In this document: one piece after another, positions 3,334-60,792 of the stretch
Position numbering within the stretch: position 1 is the first letter of the stretch
How the letters are laid out: every line of letters starts with the position of its first letter
Assembly (NCBI RefSeq): GCF_003334355.1
Contig: NZ_QOWP01000012.1
Length of the DNA stretch: 64,000 nt
Reading direction: 5' to 3' (one strand)
Source of the DNA: Escherichia coli
GTDB lineage: Bacteria; Pseudomonadota; Gammaproteobacteria; Enterobacterales; Enterobacteriaceae
Notes under the pieces: generated by a model
Databases searched by the model: none
What the model was told of the DNA's origin: nothing
What the model saw: the letters and a program-made list of their open reading frames with translations, nothing else
Position numbers and translations under genes: made by a program

Positions 3334-4445
3334 TTGCGTGGGCTAACTTTAAGTAATTCCCCACTGGACTCGTCGGTGAGAACGTATAAATAACCGTCGG
3401 GTCCAGTGCGAACATCACGAATTCGCTGCCCTCTGTCCGTTAAAATACGGCCATCTTCTGTCACTTTGTCGCCGTTGACGCTCATCACAATGACATCTTT
3501 ATCTTTCAGCGCGCCAATAAATAATTTTTGCTGCCACTGGGGGAATTTATCGCTGTTATAGAAGGCCATGCCGCTCACAGCGGGCGAATCTTTCCAGTAA
3601 AAAACAGGTTGCTCGGTCCCGGCGACGATCTCCCCTTTCGCTTCCGGTATCTTAAAGCCTGAATAGTTGATTCCCCAGGTTGCCAGCGGCCAGCCGTAGT
3701 TTTTGCCTTTTTGCGGGATATTAATTTCATCACCACCGCGCGGGCCATGTTCATTCAGCCACAGTGCATTACTCCACGGATTCATCGCCATTCCTTGCGG
3801 ATTACGAATGCCATAAGACCAGATCTCGGCGCGCGCACCGGATTCCTTTATAAAAGGATTATCATCCGGGATTTCGCCCTGGTCGGTCAGACGCACCAGT
3901 TTGCCCTGTAATTTATCCAGATCCTGCGCCGTCGGGCGCTGATTGTTTTCGCCCAGAGCAATAAAAAGATAACCTTTACCGTCGAATACCAGCCGCCCGC
4001 CAAAATGGTTGCCGGTAGACAGTTTTGGCATCTGGCGAAAGACGGTGCGGAAGTCGGTCACTTTTGAGAGATCATCACTTAAGCGGCCATAACCCACAGC
4101 AGTTCCGGCTTTGCCATCATCGCCAACTTCGGAATAACTTAACCAGATGCGGCGAGACTGAGCAAAATCAGGCGCTAAAACCACGTCCAGCAGGCCGCCC
4201 TGCCCGTGCGCCCAAACGTCCGGCACTCCGGAAAGCGGCGCAGATAATCCTTTTCCTGCTTGCCAGTGACGCAACTCGCCGCCGCGCAGAGTGATTAACA
4301 TACCGTGATTATCGGGTAAAAAGGCCAGTGACCAGGGATGGTCGAGTTTGTCTTGCAGTACTTCGACATTTACCGTTGCAGGAGCCGCCCAGAGAGCGGA
4401 AGAAAGACAAATAAGGGGCACAAGGAAAAAGAATGGTCGATGCAT
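3330..4445 (-). CDS. yliI: Soluble aldose sugar dehydrogenase YliI (PQQ-dependent, beta-propeller)
   Basis: 371-aa ORF with signal peptide; recognised sequence; stop codon overlaps gstB stop by 4 bp (convergent). Confidence 0.92.
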
Positions 4446-37809: not shown

Positions 37810-40035
37810 ATGCGGTGGATCCTGTTCATCCTCTTCTGCCTGCTGGGCGCACCTGCCCACGCGGTATCCATACCCGGCGTTACAACCACAACGACAACGG
37901 ACTCAACGACTGAACCGGCCCCGGAACCGGATATCGAACAAAAAAAAGCGGCCTATGGCGCACTGGCGGATGTGCTGGATAATGACACCTCGCGTAAAGA
38001 GTTGATCGACCAGTTGCGCACCGTTGCCGCTACGCCCCCTGCTGAACCGGTACCAAAAATAGTGCCGCCGACGCTGGTCGAAGAGCAAACCGTGCTGCAA
38101 AAGGTCACCGAAGTCAGCCGCCATTATGGTGAAGCCCTTTCCGCCCGCTTCGGGCAACTTTATCGCAATATCACCGGCTCCCCGCATAAGCCGTTTAATC
38201 CACAAACCTTCAGCAATGCGCTGACCCATTTTTCAATGTTAGCGGTATTAGTGTTTGGTTTTTACTGGCTGATTCGCCTGTGCGCACTGCCGCTGTATCG
38301 CAAAATGGGTCAGTGGGCGCGGCAAAAAAATCGTGAGCGCAGCAACTGGTTGCAGCTTCCGGCGATGATTATCGGGGCGTTTATTATCGACCTGCTGTTA
38401 CTGGCCCTGACATTATTTGTCGGCCAGGTATTAAGCGACAACCTGAATGCAGGCAGTCGCACCATCGCTTTCCAACAAAGTTTGTTTCTCAACGCCTTTG
38501 CCCTCATTGAATTTTTCAAAGCCGTACTACGCCTGATTTTTTGCCCAAACGTGGCGGAGCTGCGCCCGTTCACGATTCAGGACGAGAGCGCCCGTTACTG
38601 GAGTCGTCGCCTGAGCTGGTTAAGCAGTTTGATAGGTTATGGCCTGATTGTGGCCGTGCCGATTATCTCTAATCAGGTGAATGTACAGATAGGTGCGCTG
38701 GCGAACGTCATCATTATGCTGTGCATGACCGTCTGGGCGTTGTACCTGATCTTTCGTAATAAAAAAGAGATTACCCAGCATTTGCTCAACTTCGCGGAGC
38801 ATTCGCTGGCCTTTTTCAGCCTGTTTATCCGCGCCTTTGCGCTGGTGTGGCACTGGCTGGCAAGCGCCTATTTTATCGTGCTGTTTTTCTTTTCGTTGTT
38901 CGATCCGGGCAACAGCCTGAAATTTATGATGGGTGCAACGGTGCGCAGCCTGGCGATTATTGGTATCGCAGCGTTTGTTTCCGGTATGTTTTCCCGCTGG
39001 CTGGCGAAAACCATCACTCTCTCGCCACATACTCAGCGTAACTATCCGGAGCTGCAAAAACGGTTGAATGGCTGGCTGTCGGCGGCGCTGAAAACGGCGC
39101 GTATTCTGACAGTCTGCGTGGCGGTAATGTTGCTGTTGAGCGCATGGGGATTGTTCGATTTCTGGAACTGGCTGCAAAACGGCGCGGGGCAGAAAACCGT
39201 AGATATCCTGATCCGTATCGCACTCATTCTTTTCTTCTCGGCGGTTGGCTGGACGGTGCTCGCCAGTTTGATCGAAAACCGGCTGGCTTCGGATATTCAT
39301 GGCCGCCCGCTACCCAGCGCCCGCACGCGTACCCTGCTTACGCTGTTTCGTAACGCGCTGGCGGTGATTATCAGTACCATCACCATCATGATTGTGTTGT
39401 CGGAAATCGGCGTCAATATCGCGCCATTGCTGGCAGGTGCCGGGGCATTAGGTCTGGCTATCTCGTTTGGTTCGCAAACGCTGGTGAAAGATATTATCAC
39501 CGGGGTATTTATTCAGTTTGAAAACGGCATGAACACTGGAGATTTGGTGACTATCGGGCCGTTGACCGGCACAGTGGAACGGATGTCGATTCGCTCCGTG
39601 GGCGTACGCCAGGATACCGGGGCGTATCACATCATTCCGTGGTCTTCGATAACCACCTTTGCTAACTTTGTCCGCGGCATTGGTTCGGTGGTGGCAAATT
39701 ATGATGTTGATCGCCATGAAGATGCTGATAAAGCCAATCAGGCACTGAAAGATGCGGTAGCGGAATTAATGGAAAACGAAGAAATTCGCGGGCTGATTAT
39801 TGGTGAACCGAATTTTGCCGGGATTGTCGGCTTAAGCAATACCGCGTTTACACTGCGTGTTTCGTTCACCACGCTGCCACTCAAACAGTGGACGGTACGC
39901 TTTGCCCTCGACAGCCAGGTGAAAAAACATTTCGACCTGGCGGGCGTTCGCGCGCCAGTGCAGACTTATCAGGTGCTGCCTGCTCCGGGCGCGACCCCGG
40001 CTGAACCGTTACCGCCGGGGGAACCAACGCTTTAA
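37810..40035 (+). CDS. ybiO: MscS-family mechanosensitive channel YbiO
   Basis: ORF 37675..40035; start placed at ATG 37810 ([18 protein letters not shown] signal peptide) with ggagg RBS; 741 aa. Confidence 0.92.
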
Positions 40036-52646: not shown

Positions 52647-56037
<3,391 letters not shown>

Positions 56038-56045
<8 letters not shown>

Positions 56046-57171
56046 CCCGATCCTGTCCTGGCGTCGCGTACGGGCGCTGTGCGTTAAAGAGACGCGGCAG
56101 ATCGTTCGCGATCCGAGTAGCTGGCTGATTGCGGTAGTGATCCCGCTGCTACTGCTGTTTATTTTTGGTTACGGCATTAACCTCGACTCCAGCAAGCTGC
56201 GGGTCGGGATTTTACTGGAACAGCGTAGCGAAGCGGCGCTGGATTTCACCCACACCATGACCGGTTCGCCCTACATCGACGCCACCATCAGCGATAACCG
56301 TCAGGAACTGATCGCCAAAATGCAGGCGGGGAAAATTCGCGGTCTGGTGGTTATTCCGGTGGATTTTGCGGAACAGATGGAGCGCGCCAACGCCACCGCA
56401 CCGATTCAGGTGATCACCGACGGCAGTGAGCCGAATACCGCTAACTTTGTACAGGGGTATGTCGAAGGGATCTGGCAGATCTGGCAAATGCAGCGAGCGG
56501 AGGACAACGGGCAGACTTTTGAACCGCTTATTGATGTACAAACCCGCTACTGGTTTAACCCGGCGGCGATTAGCCAGCACTTCATTATCCCCGGTGCGGT
56601 GACCATTATCATGACGGTCATCGGCGCGATTCTCACCTCGCTGGTGGTGGCGCGAGAATGGGAACGCGGCACCATGGAGGCTCTGCTCTCTACGGAGATT
56701 ACCCGCACGGAACTGCTGCTGTGTAAGCTGATCCCTTATTACTTTCTCGGGATGCTGGCGATGTTGCTGTGTATGCTGGTGTCAGTGTTTATTCTCGGCG
56801 TGCCGTATCGCGGGTCGCTGCTGATTCTGTTTTTTATCTCCAGCCTGTTTTTACTCAGTACCCTGGGGATGGGGCTGCTGATTTCCACGATTACCCGCAA
56901 CCAGTTCAATGCCGCTCAGGTCGCCCTGAACGCCGCTTTTCTGCCGTCGATTATGCTTTCCGGCTTTATTTTTCAGATCGACAGTATGCCCGCGGTGATC
57001 CGCGCGGTGACGTACATTATTCCCGCTCGTTATTTCGTCAGCACCCTGCAAAGCCTGTTCCTCGCCGGGAATATTCCAGTGGTGCTGGTGGTAAACGTGC
57101 TGTTTTTGATCGCTTCGGCGGTGATGTTTATCGGCCTGACGTGGCTGAAAACCAAACGTCGGCTGGATTAG
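56038..57171 (+). CDS. ybhS: ABC-2 family permease YbhS
   Basis: 377-aa polytopic ORF; start overlaps ybhF stop by 8 bp. Confidence 0.93.
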
Positions 57172-57181
57172 GGAGAAGAGC

Positions 57182-58288
57182 ATGTTTCATCGCTTATGGA
57201 CGTTAATCCGCAAAGAGTTGCAGTCGTTGCTGCGCGAACCGCAAACCCGCGCGATTCTGATTTTACCCGTGCTAATTCAGGTGATCCTGTTCCCGTTCGC
57301 CGCCACGCTGGAAGTGACTAACGCCACCATCGCCATCTACGATGAAGATAACGGCGAGCATTCGGTGGAGCTGACCCAACGTTTTGCCCGCGCCAGCGCC
57401 TTTACTCATGTGCTGCTGCTGAAAAGCCCACAGGAGATCCGCCCAACCATCGACACACAAAAGGCGTTACTACTGGTGCGTTTCCCGGCTGACTTCTCGC
57501 GCAAACTGGATACCTTCCAGACCGCGCCTTTGCAGTTGATCCTCGACGGGCGTAACTCCAACAGTGCGCAAATTGCCGCCAACTACCTGCAACAGATCGT
57601 CAAAAATTATCAGCAGGAGCTGCTGGAAGGAAAACCGAAACCTAACAACAGCGAGCTGGTGGTACGCAACTGGTATAACCCGAATCTCGACTACAAATGG
57701 TTTGTGGTGCCGTCACTGATCGCCATGATCACCACTATCGGCGTAATGATCGTCACTTCACTTTCCGTCGCCCGCGAACGTGAACAAGGTACGCTCGATC
57801 AGCTACTGGTTTCGCCGCTCACCACCTGGCAGATCTTCATCGGCAAAGCCGTACCGGCGTTAATTGTCGCCACCTTCCAGGCCACCATTGTGCTGGCGAT
57901 TGGTATCTGGGCGTATCAAATCCCCTTCGCCGGATCGCTGGCGCTGTTCTACTTTACGATGGTGATTTATGGTTTATCGCTGGTGGGATTCGGTCTGTTG
58001 ATTTCATCACTCTGTTCAACACAACAGCAGGCGTTTATCGGCGTGTTTGTCTTTATGATGCCCGCCATTCTCCTTTCCGGTTACGTTTCTCCGGTGGAAA
58101 ACATGCCGGTATGGCTGCAAAACCTGACGTGGATTAACCCTATTCGCCACTTTACGGACATTACCAAGCAGATTTATTTGAAGGATGCGAGTCTGGATAT
58201 TGTGTGGAATAGTTTGTGGCCGCTACTGGTGATAACGGCCACGACAGGGTCAGCGGCGTACGCGATGTTTAGACGTAAGGTGATGTAA
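57182..58288 (+). CDS. ybhR: ABC-2 family permease YbhR
   Basis: 368-aa polytopic ORF, paralogous to YbhS. Confidence 0.93.
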
Positions 58289-58660
58289 CTTCTTATCTTT
58301 CGCCAGCAAAGACACTACCGCCGGGCCGGCAAGGATTGCCAGCCCTGCAATTGCCAGCAAAAAGTTGTTTTCCAGAACGCGGGACAACAGCCACAGCACA
58401 ATCAGCGCTGCGCCAAAATACCAGGTCGTGGTCAGCTCTTCCAGCACGTCTGCCACCTCACGCCAGCGTTGCTCGGGGTGGCGCTGAAACACCAGCATCA
58501 TCACTACCGTGACACAATACAGTGCGCATAATCCCACGCCGACGTGAACCAGAGTCTTACTCATCCAGCCCACCACCAGCAGCGCCACTACCAGTAAATG
58601 CAACATAATCTGCCAGCAACTTAGACCCGTTGCGACACGAACACGTTGTTGCCACTTCAT
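58250..58660 (-). CDS. ybhQ: Inner membrane protein YbhQ
   Basis: 136-aa ORF with 4 predicted TM helices; 3' end overlaps the ybhR 3' end by 39 bp (convergent). Confidence 0.88.
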
Positions 58661-58792
58661 GGCTTCTCTCCTGAAGAATTTATCTCTACTTACTCAGAGT
58701 ACCGAACTTTACGGAAAATTCCGTAAGACCGCACCTTTTTGTGACGCCGACTACACTATTTCAATGAGATAAGAGGCAAAGACAGGAAAATT

Positions 58793-59554
58793 ATGCCCGA
58801 TCAAACACAACAATTTTCGTTCAAGGTGCTCACCATCAATATTCACAAAGGCTTTACCGCGTTTAACCGACGCTTCATTTTGCCGGAACTTCGCGACGCC
58901 GTGCGTACCGTCAGCGCCGATATTGTTTGCCTGCAGGAAGTGATGGGCGCGCACGAAGTTCATCCGCTGCATGTGGAAAACTGGCCCGATACCTCGCACT
59001 ACGAGTTTCTCGCCGACACTATGTGGAGCGATTTTGCCTACGGTCGCAATGCCGTATACCCGGAAGGGCATCACGGCAACGCCGTACTGTCGCGTTATCC
59101 CATTGAACATTATGAGAATCGCGATGTTTCGGTCGATGGTGCGGAAAAGCGCGGCGTGCTCTACTGCCGCATTGTGCCGCCGATGACCGGAAAAGCGATT
59201 CATGTGATGTGCGTACATCTGGGCCTGCGTGAGGCGCACCGTCAGGCGCAGCTTGCGATGCTCGCCGAATGGGTGAATGAGCTACCGGACGGCGAACCGG
59301 TATTGGTGGCGGGTGATTTCAATGACTGGCGGCAAAAAGCTAATCATCCGTTAAAAGTGCAGGCCGGACTGGATGAGATATTTACCCGCGCCCACGGACG
59401 CCCGGCGCGCACGTTTCCGGTGCAATTTCCTCTACTACGTCTGGACAGGATCTACGTCAAAAATGCCAGCGCCAGCGCGCCAACCGCGTTGCCGCTGCAG
59501 ACATGGCGACACCTTTCTGATCATGCCCCTTTAAGTGCGGAGATTCATTTATGA
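58793..59554 (+). CDS. ybhP: Endonuclease/exonuclease/phosphatase-family protein YbhP
   Basis: 253-aa ORF; EEP fold; stop overlaps clsB start by 4 bp. Confidence 0.92.
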
Positions 59555-60792
59555 AATGTAGCTGGCGTGAAGGCAATAAGATCGAGTTGCTGGAAAACGG
59601 CGAGCAATATTATCCCGCGGTGTTTAAGGCGATTGGCGAGGCACAAGAACGCATCATTCTTGAAACGTTTATCTGGTTTGAGGATGACGTCGGCAAACAG
59701 CTGCATGCGGCACTACTGGCAGCAGCGCAACGCGGGGTTAAAGCGGAAGTCTTGCTGGATGGCTACGGTTCGCCGGATCTCAGCGATGAGTTTGTCAATG
59801 AACTGACGGCAGCTGGCGTGGTATTTCGCTACTACGATCCCCGCCCTCGCCTTTTTGGTATGCGCACCAATGTGTTTCGCCGGATGCATCGCAAAATTGT
59901 GGTGATCGACGCGCGTATCGCCTTTATTGGCGGGCTGAATTACTCCGCCGAGCATATGTCCAGCTACGGTCCAGAGGCTAAACAGGATTACGCGGTACGC
60001 CTTGAAGGGCCGATTGTCGAAGATATTCTCCAGTTTGAGCTGGAAAACCTGCCTGGACAGAGCGCGGCACGACGCTGGTGGCGACGTCATCACAAAGCGG
60101 AAGAAAATCGCCAGCCGGGAGAAGCGCAGGTATTGCTGGTCTGGCGCGATAACGAAGAACACCGCGATGATATAGAACGCCACTATCTGAAAATGCTCAC
60201 TCAGGCGCGGCGGGAAGTCATTATCGCCAACGCCTACTTCTTCCCCGGCTATCGATTTTTACACGCCTTGCGTAAAGCGGCACGCCGCGGGGTGCGGATC
60301 AAACTGATCATTCAGGGCGAACCGGATATGCCGATTGTCAGAGTCGGCGCGCGCTTGCTGTATAACTATCTGGTTAAAGGCGGCGTTCAGGTGTTTGAGT
60401 ACCGCCGCCGCCCGCTCCACGGCAAAGTAGCATTGATGGACGATCACTGGGCGACAGTAGGGTCCAGTAATCTCGATCCGCTCAGTTTGTCACTGAATCT
60501 CGAAGCAAATGTCATCATCCACGATCGTAATTTTAACCAGACGCTGCGCGATAATCTGAACGGCATTATCGCCGCAGATTGTCAGCAGGTGGATGAAACC
60601 ATGCTGCCCAAACGCACCTGGTGGAACCTGACCAAAAGCGTGCTGGCGTTCCACTTTTTACGCCACTTCCCGGCGCTGGTTGGCTGGCTTCCGGCACACA
60701 CGCCACGTCTGGCGCAGGTTGATCCGCCCGCACAACCGACAATGGAAACGCAGGATCGGGTAGAAACTGAAAACACGGGGGTAAAACCCTGA
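59551..60792 (+). CDS. clsB: Cardiolipin synthase B (ClsB, phospholipase D family)
   Basis: 413-aa ORF; two HKD motifs ([16 protein letters not shown]). Confidence 0.94.

Follow-up and report, generated by a model that had tools for sequence, protein, structure and literature searches.

Two convergent genes of Escherichia coli, ybhR and ybhQ, are annotated as sharing the DNA of their 3' ends, which raises the question of whether this overlap is real, which of the two genes dictates the shared sequence and whether the overlap has a regulatory role of its own. We examined the junction within a window of 64,000 nucleotides of E. coli DNA, which is the whole stretch that was analysed and in which all positions below are numbered. 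The ybhR coding sequence (57182..58288, + strand) encodes 368 aa, ends in TAA and is the last gene of the cecR-ybhGFSR unit; its product is the ABC-2 permease of the YbhFSR exporter. The ybhQ coding sequence (58250..58660, - strand) encodes an inner-membrane protein of 136 aa (Pfam PF11076) and ends in TGA. The gene order in the window is ybhF-ybhS-ybhR / ybhQ / ybhP-clsB-ybhN. The open reading frames and the RefSeq annotation gave the same ends for both genes, and the 39-bp antiparallel overlap of the two 3' ends described in the first-pass annotation was thereby confirmed. The same annotation had stated that ybiO/rlmF and gstB/yliI overlap by just 4 bp each, which also proved correct when all 12 convergent pairs of the window were compared; the remaining nine pairs, apart from these two and ybhR/ybhQ, are separated by gaps of 35-240 bp.

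The dual-coding segment (58250..58288, both strands) comprises 13 codons of each gene and encodes YbhR S357-M368 plus the stop on the + strand and YbhQ L124-R136 plus the stop on the - strand. The two frames lie in exact mirror register, with codon position 2 opposite position 2 and position 1 opposite position 3. On the + strand, the ybhR codons read TCA GCG GCG TAC GCG ATG TTT AGA CGT AAG GTG ATG TAA, and on the - strand, the ybhQ codons read TTA CAT CAC CTT ACG TCT AAA CAT CGC GTA CGC CGC TGA. The ybhR Ser357 codon TCA (58250..58252, both strands) is the ybhQ stop codon TGA on the opposite strand. Identical ends of both genes were found in the RefSeq/PGAP annotation of two E. coli strains. 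Of 5426 complete E. coli genomes, 5424 contained the region, and 5232 of these 5424 had an identical 91-bp sequence around the overlap.

A scan of one genome per species revealed 80 loci with ybhQ, or 82 together with two earlier E. coli loci, and in 64 of these 82 a distance of exactly 39 bp separated the ybhQ and ybhR stops. In a curated species-level set of 58 loci, the 39-bp overlap was present in 44, a spacer in 13 and a 48-bp overlap in one (Kosakonia cowanii). The exact 39-bp overlap spans more than 15 genera, including Escherichia, Salmonella, Citrobacter, Leclercia, Enterobacter, Kluyvera, Yokenella, Atlantibacter, Cedecea, Mangrovibacter, Siccibacter, Trabulsiella, Superficieibacter and others; Cronobacter sakazakii, which stands beyond the 58-locus set, also has 39 bp. 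The 13 spacer species, with spacers of 2-206 bp, comprise three Kosakonia, Raoultella, two Phytobacter, Pluralibacter gergoviae and a few mislabelled isolates. Four other loci carried a nonsense codon or a frameshift in one gene, which are probably assembly errors.

The lengths of both proteins were closely maintained. YbhR orthologs had 367-368 aa with a C-terminus that was conserved in 58 of 58 species, and in 44 species the YbhQ frame, mostly of 136 aa, closed at the identical mirrored stop; every junction indel in the overlap species was a multiple of 3, giving YbhQ proteins of 135-139 aa. Rare YbhQ variants of 161 aa were also observed, in which a frameshift leads into a mirrored frame without a stop for a further 25 codons. 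That 13 codons of a mirror frame should be open is not improbable in itself, and it is the conservation that exceeds chance. The ybhR/ybhQ pair is a conserved convergent overlapping gene pair, with two real genes, retention beyond close strains and purifying selection on both frames. A mis-annotated stop in either gene, which the first-pass annotation had named as the possible source of error, was ruled out by comparison of the orthologs, since both stops are conserved, and the overlap survived this check.

The shared sequence is dictated by ybhR. The C-terminal end of YbhR (..[IV][AM]) was the same in every species, with overlap or spacer, and it is because the YbhR tail is equally conserved with and without the overlap that we assign the leading part to this frame. 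The last 13 residues of YbhQ are a mirror reading of the YbhR C-terminus, and the E. coli tail ends ..KHRVRR. In the overlap species, the invariant K-H of YbhQ mirrors M-F of YbhR, the variable [A/T/S/P] pair of YbhQ corresponds exactly to synonymous changes of the two Arg codons of ybhR, and position 124 of YbhQ is L when the ybhR stop is TAA or TAG and S when it is TGA. In such a mirror register, a stop codon arises only opposite Leu (TTA, CTA) or Ser (TCA) codons. The last 12 residues of YbhR contain neither Leu nor Ser; therefore, the mirror frame is open as far as Ser357 and the overlap measures 39 bp. Any ybhQ frame that entered the ybhR tail would be obliged to run on to the Ser357 codon TCA, read as TGA. 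Being short and basic, the mirrored YbhQ tail resembles unrelated tails that YbhQ has in other lineages and so would be tolerated. The earlier proposal that the overlap constrains both C-termini is thus borne out on one side, in that ybhQ holds its stop and a few basic residues, and fails on the other, where the ybhR tail is conserved regardless.

Selection from the ybhQ side was sought at synonymous sites in 52 full-length ybhR genes aligned by codon. Ser357 was TCA in 38 of 38 Ser-bearing overlap species, and its heterozygosity of 0 was lower than in any of the 16 remaining conserved Ser columns, whose mean was 0.43, while the neighbouring Gly, Thr and Thr codons were near saturation (0.57-0.73). 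The sole departures from TCA in overlap species were changes from Ser to Leu with the codon CTA, which still provides a mirrored stop, TAG. Ala359 was GCG in 37 of 39 overlap species, with a heterozygosity below that of all 22 other Ala columns, and the third base of codon 358 was always G. Additionally, Phe363 was TTT in 35 of 39 overlap species, which keeps Lys rather than Glu in YbhQ. The Ser357 site of all 13 spacer species contained TCA in eight, TCG in three, ACA in one and GCA in one; those spacer species that were part of the codon alignment had GCG (8), GCC (3) or GCA (1) at Ala359 and TTT in 3 of 12 at Phe363. Four ybhQ-less relatives had AGT or AGC at the Ser site. The two Arg codons of ybhR in the overlap were more variable than every other Arg column. 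Selection from the ybhQ side is therefore detectable at only three to four ybhR codons, namely TCA, GCG, the G-ending codon 358 and TTT. As judged from these sequence patterns, the YbhQ tail is probably translated, and selection keeps the ybhQ stop and a few basic residues by way of the synonymous sites of ybhR.

A third layer of information was found upstream of the overlap in ybhR. Folding revealed a conserved stem-loop of 11 bp (58216..58242, - strand) within ybhR codons W346-T354, which begins 7 nt after the ybhQ stop and which we propose to be a protective 3'-end hairpin of the ybhQ mRNA. Its sequence on the ybhQ-sense strand is GUGGCCGUUAU-CACCA-GUAGCGGCCAC, with 11 pairs formed. The stem-loop was present in essentially all 58 species, including the spacer species. 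The stem lies inside the ybhR coding sequence and is therefore maintained through synonymous and rare codons of ybhR: Pro347 was CCG in 52 of 52 genes of the codon alignment, position 348 accounted for 28 of the 89 rare Leu codons CTA in the alignment, and position 351 accounted for 39 of its 124 rare Ile codons ATA. The observed mean stability of approximately -19 kcal/mol fell in the 1.2% tail of a synonymous-recoding null (-12.7 +/- 3.5 kcal/mol), in which the peptide alone already favours a moderate hairpin. Compensatory changes were thin, with four cells at two pairs, such as a G-C to A-U change in Mangrovibacter. Yersinia, Hafnia, Dickeya and Pragia, which have ybhR without an adjacent ybhQ, encode the same WPLLVIT.TTGS peptide and lack the hairpin (-6.7 to -9.2 kcal/mol), a comparison in which the presence of ybhQ is confounded with family membership, as all four of these controls come from other families.

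Several other searches around the stem-loop were negative. The element is intragenic and occurs as a single copy in the window, even when up to three mismatches were allowed, so it does not behave as a REP-like repeat. Matches to the stem-loop in a plasmid collection were mislabelled chromosomal pieces. There was no Rfam family at E <= 1 within 56000..60000, and global folding of 200 nt per strand was no more stable than that of shuffled sequences (z = +0.26 and -0.73). A + strand hairpin past the ybhR stop (58320..58348) was considered as a counterpart for ybhR and rejected, the ybhQ codons that encode it being highly variable (heterozygosity 0.54-0.73).

Published RNA data place the end of the ybhQ transcript directly at the stem-loop. 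In the Term-seq data of Adams et al. 2021 (PMC7815308), the steady-state 3' end of the ybhQ mRNA lies at MG1655 825080 (+), corresponding to position 58210 on the - strand of the window; supplementary file 1, in which the end is entered on two condition sheets, classifies it as a primary end of ybhQ that is antisense to ybhR. The sequence strings of the table were calibrated on thrL and sgrS, the 3' end being base 51 of each string. Position 58210 is 6 nt past the stem-loop, and the resulting 3' UTR of 40 nt lies wholly within ybhR. Supplementary file 2 of the same study (PMC7815308) contains two facing regions of Rho termination, for which the method uses 800-nt windows, and the peak positions are approximate. 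The ybhQ-sense peak, at ~58108 on the - strand (MG1655 825182 (+), score 3.95, p = 5e-7), is inside ybhR; the ybhR-sense peak, at ~58361 on the + strand (MG1655 824929 (-), score 3.85, p = 2e-7), is inside ybhQ, 73 nt past the ybhR stop. On the - strand, the hairpin is immediately followed by a C-rich, G-poor stretch (58163..58215) that is putatively rut-like in function, with a C/G ratio of 2.7 in the 60 nt from 58222 to 58163 compared with 0.90 over the whole ybhR antisense strand.

The junction resembles intrinsic and bidirectional terminators in having a G+C-rich stem-loop between convergent genes, but it differs from them in its flanks and in its published mode of termination, which is Rho-dependent on both strands. 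The tail that follows the stem on the ybhQ strand, AAACUAUUCC, has no U-tract; the stem is followed by AAACTATT on the ybhQ strand and by GACAGGGT on the ybhR strand. A consensus scan revealed no intrinsic terminator at the hairpin, and neither a U-tract after the stem nor an A-tract before it was present on either strand. A canonical intrinsic or bidirectional terminator was rejected; the scan's only nearby match, a weak-tailed one at 58332..58318 on the - strand, falls within ybhQ.

Dar and Sorek 2018 (PMC6061677) described Rho-dependent transcripts that terminate diffusely downstream and are trimmed by PNPase and RNase II to a protective stem-loop. The ybhQ end is similar to these ends, with a stable stem-loop just upstream of a precise 3' end, no U-tract, an excess of C over G downstream and, in the published data, a bicyclomycin-sensitive termination region further downstream. 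The difference is that the ybhQ stem-loop and the whole 3' UTR are inside the coding sequence of the convergent gene. By analogy, the trimming model may hold at ybhQ as well. Both convergent transcripts are terminated by Rho within the coding region of the partner, and the ybhQ transcript would most likely then be trimmed to the hairpin by 3'-5' exonucleases, with the hairpin presumably acting as the exonuclease block on the ybhQ strand.

Given the published 3' ends and Rho regions, the ybhQ and ybhR transcripts overlap by roughly 150 nt or more. The first-pass annotation had held that the arrangement forces transcriptional collision, and this is supported only in the sense that the transcripts overlap, as the 58210 end lies inside ybhR and the Rho peaks at ~58108 and ~58361. 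Such an overlap speaks for a regulatory excludon, in which convergent transcription would lead to polymerase collision, to RNase III cleavage of the duplex or to both, and one unit would lower the other, an idea akin to the antisense interference that the first-pass annotation had considered. The pair is explicitly included in the 165 convergent excludons of MG1655 reported by ExcludonFinder (PMC12288877), which were detected in no fewer than 50% of 58 RNA-seq samples and which also include rlmF-ybiO and yliI-gstB, and the conservation of the arrangement across the family points in the same direction. Compared with the excludons in general (PMC12288877), ybhQ and ybhR are alike in their convergent, overlapping transcripts; they differ in that the coding sequences overlap, beyond the UTRs, and membership is known for this pair by transcript overlap. 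However, listing is almost automatic for a pair with a coding overlap, the 13 spacer species, which have no coding overlap, are scattered over the local tree, and the constraints at the codon level are what protein coding together with a single hairpin would lead one to expect. In the literature examined, we found no pair-specific evidence of reciprocal expression or duplex cleavage. We regard a regulatory excludon as unlikely here. Because the spacer species keep the hairpin inside ybhR, the transcript overlap is independent of the 39-bp coding overlap, and any antisense interplay would rest on the overlap of the transcripts, which is probably retained in the spacer species, rather than on the 39 coding bases. 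The coding overlap as such seems dispensable, and it presumably has no regulatory role of its own.

It is also conceivable that the stem-loop at 58216..58242 serves ybhR or the DNA itself and is unrelated to ybhQ, for instance as a pause site for translation close to the final YbhR transmembrane helix, as a stabiliser of the ybhGFSR mRNA or as a protein-binding palindrome. The ybhR-sense strand does fold well, at a mean of -17.9 kcal/mol, and its hairpin is more stable than that of the ybhQ-sense strand in 23 of 58 species, the reverse being true in 35 of 58; the proportion of paired stem cells was 84% on the ybhR-sense and 90% on the ybhQ-sense strand. In 20 sequences, an apical pair persists as G-U on the ybhR-sense strand alone, whereas the wobble-compatible changes of the core stem favour the ybhQ-sense strand (16 cells against 5), and as a whole the G-U patterns show a modest lean to ybhQ-sense as the functional strand. 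The retention of the hairpin in spacer species, at 50-250 nt from the ybhQ stop and even where the spacer has hairpins of its own, would fit a function for ybhR, but the measured RNA 3' end just beyond the stem-loop is that of the ybhQ-sense strand, ribosomes translating the ybhR strand would unwind the stem, and the four ybhR orthologs without a neighbouring ybhQ have the peptide and no hairpin. A hairpin unconnected with ybhQ is thus quite improbable in our view. A still more ambitious proposal would join the overlap, the stem-loop and the facing Rho zones into one antisense module, in which the CecR-controlled YbhFSR would be inversely coupled to YbhQ and the hairpin would tune this coupling; we offer it as speculation and consider it very improbable. 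That the overlap is an annotation artefact, with one of the two genes truly ending earlier, is scarcely credible, for although annotations of long overlaps in prokaryotes are often wrong and Palleja et al. 2008 (PMC2478687) assigned 124 of 178 convergent overlaps exceeding 60 bp to the class of 3' extensions, both ends are set here by stop codons, to which start-codon errors are irrelevant, neither gene has an earlier in-frame stop, the length and C-terminus of YbhR and YbhQ are kept across genera, and the ybhQ stop is under selection at a synonymous site of ybhR, where all changes keep a stop.

The YbhQ family is small, with 66 clusters at 50% identity. Distant YbhQ proteins of insect symbionts have short basic tails and are encoded near moa/ybhL without ybhR, and in Dickeya ybhFSR is directly followed by ybhP-clsB with no ybhQ. 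Within the data examined, the convergent ybhQ/ybhR junction is specific to Enterobacteriaceae. One distant YbhQ (P0141, tail ..ASSKHQ) was considered as a hidden ybhR overlap and was rejected, its neighbour being a different gene. In the spacer lineages, the spacer is a clean insertion of 45-200 bp, bounded exactly by the ybhQ codons for K-[DE]-K-[KRS] on one side and by the ybhR stop on the other; some spacers have their own hairpins and others do not. These lineages are scattered over a local four-protein tree, which suggests that the overlap is ancestral and was lost at least six times. Counter to an ancestral overlap, the spacer alleles share a homologous tail motif and the overlap alleles share one junction. 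A tandem duplication of the 39 bp was not detected in the spacer species, where local alignment scores were not above those of shuffled sequences.

Conserved convergent overlapping gene pairs of prokaryotes were reportedly described by Rogozin and co-workers in 2002. In E. coli, Huvet and Stumpf 2014 (PMC4161906) counted 75 convergent overlaps among 663 overlapping pairs, and Palleja et al. 2008 (PMC2478687) found the convergent orientation to be the sole one that allows long real overlaps. The ybhR/ybhQ pair resembles such pairs in that both of its oppositely oriented genes are bona fide and their 3' ends came to be shared through movement of a stop codon. It differs in that the overlap of 39 bp is longer than the common 4-bp class, is kept throughout the family, beyond close species, and has a length fixed by a partner tail without Leu or Ser.

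Taken together, we read the locus as a genuine and long-conserved overlap that is best explained by genome compaction and not by a dedicated device, with ybhR as the master from which the tail, the stop and the 3' UTR of ybhQ are borrowed; we assign this reading a probability of roughly 0.7. The overlap is real, was correctly described and is ordinary. It was already known, as it figures in the standard annotation of E. coli and in the excludon list, and the RNA 3' ends are in published tables. What is added here is that the tail of ybhQ, its stop and the hairpin at its mRNA end are all inside the ybhR coding sequence and can be read at synonymous sites. As it stands, the finding matters little, since this is one of about 75 convergent overlaps of E. 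coli. Its wider meaning lies in the fact that a single stretch of 80 bp carries three layers, namely the C-terminus of a permease, another protein's mirrored tail together with its stop, and the hairpin at the end of the mRNA for this other protein. These layers leave separable signatures at synonymous sites, which are relaxed in the spacer species and the ybhQ-less relatives, so that these provide a natural control. The locus could serve for teaching and for benchmarking the detection of multi-layer constraint, and it would be convenient for testing whether hairpins embedded in coding sequences protect Rho-terminated mRNAs.

The first-pass annotation had stated that two other convergent pairs in the window, gstB/yliI and ybiO/rlmF, overlap by only 4 bp, and this was borne out by the coordinates (3433..3436 and 40032..40035, respectively). 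Both pairs are also included in a published list of excludons (PMC12288877).

Inspection of the sequence downstream of ybhR in E. coli revealed a bulged hairpin on the + strand at 58320..58348, 32-60 nt 3' of the ybhR stop codon. This hairpin was located inside ybhQ codons 105-114, just upstream of the region in which ybhR-sense transcripts show a Rho termination peak (approximately 58361). As the underlying ybhQ codons were highly variable across species, with a heterozygosity of 0.54-0.73, the hairpin was rejected as a conserved element. A further RNA 3' end, located within ybhQ, was found in the published Term-seq data (PMC7815308); this ORF-internal end lies 61 nt into the gene, at 58600 on the - strand of the window (824690, +, in MG1655). 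The internal-ends table from that study gives this end as 'No' with a ratio of 0.595, where 'No' presumably means not Rho-dependent.

Rare YbhQ variants of 161-165 aa (P0002, P0029 and P0018) were present in public assemblies. Each variant carried a frameshift near the C-terminus, entering another mirrored frame of ybhR that was open for at least 25 codons, and was represented by 1-5 member sequences versus 1122 for the normal form. We also observed disrupted copies of both genes. In Escherichia albertii NBRC 107761, ybhQ (L006:529-939) contained a nonsense codon at W16 (TGG to TAG) and was otherwise intact, as was the 39-bp overlap; either the gene is a pseudogene in this strain or the base change reflects a sequencing error. 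Three loci (L022, L035 and L044), from Leclercia adecarboxylata NCTC13032, Kluyvera genomosp. 3 and a Citrobacter amalonaticus assembly, seemed to have a ybhR with a frameshift or truncation, probably owing to assembly indel errors.

The organism names of three records look wrong. The ybhQ-ybhR regions of 'Chryseobacterium sp. 18061' (L053) and 'Citrobacter sp. 18056' (L057) were enterobacterial, nearly identical and clustered with Pluralibacter-like taxa, and 'Citrobacter freundii M-21' (L071) clustered with Atlantibacter. In Raoultella, the two genes were separated by spacers of 183 bp (L068:2936-3118) and 206 bp (L070:2939-3144), in which the ybhQ 3' end and its downstream sequence were repeated as a second, tandem copy. 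Outside Enterobacteriaceae, the gene order of the neighbourhood was different: Dickeya zeae (L094) lacked ybhQ, and ybhFSR was followed directly by the co-directional ybhP-clsB, while the insect symbionts with reduced genomes (L083, L086 and L088) carried ybhQ near moaDE/ybhL, without ybhR.
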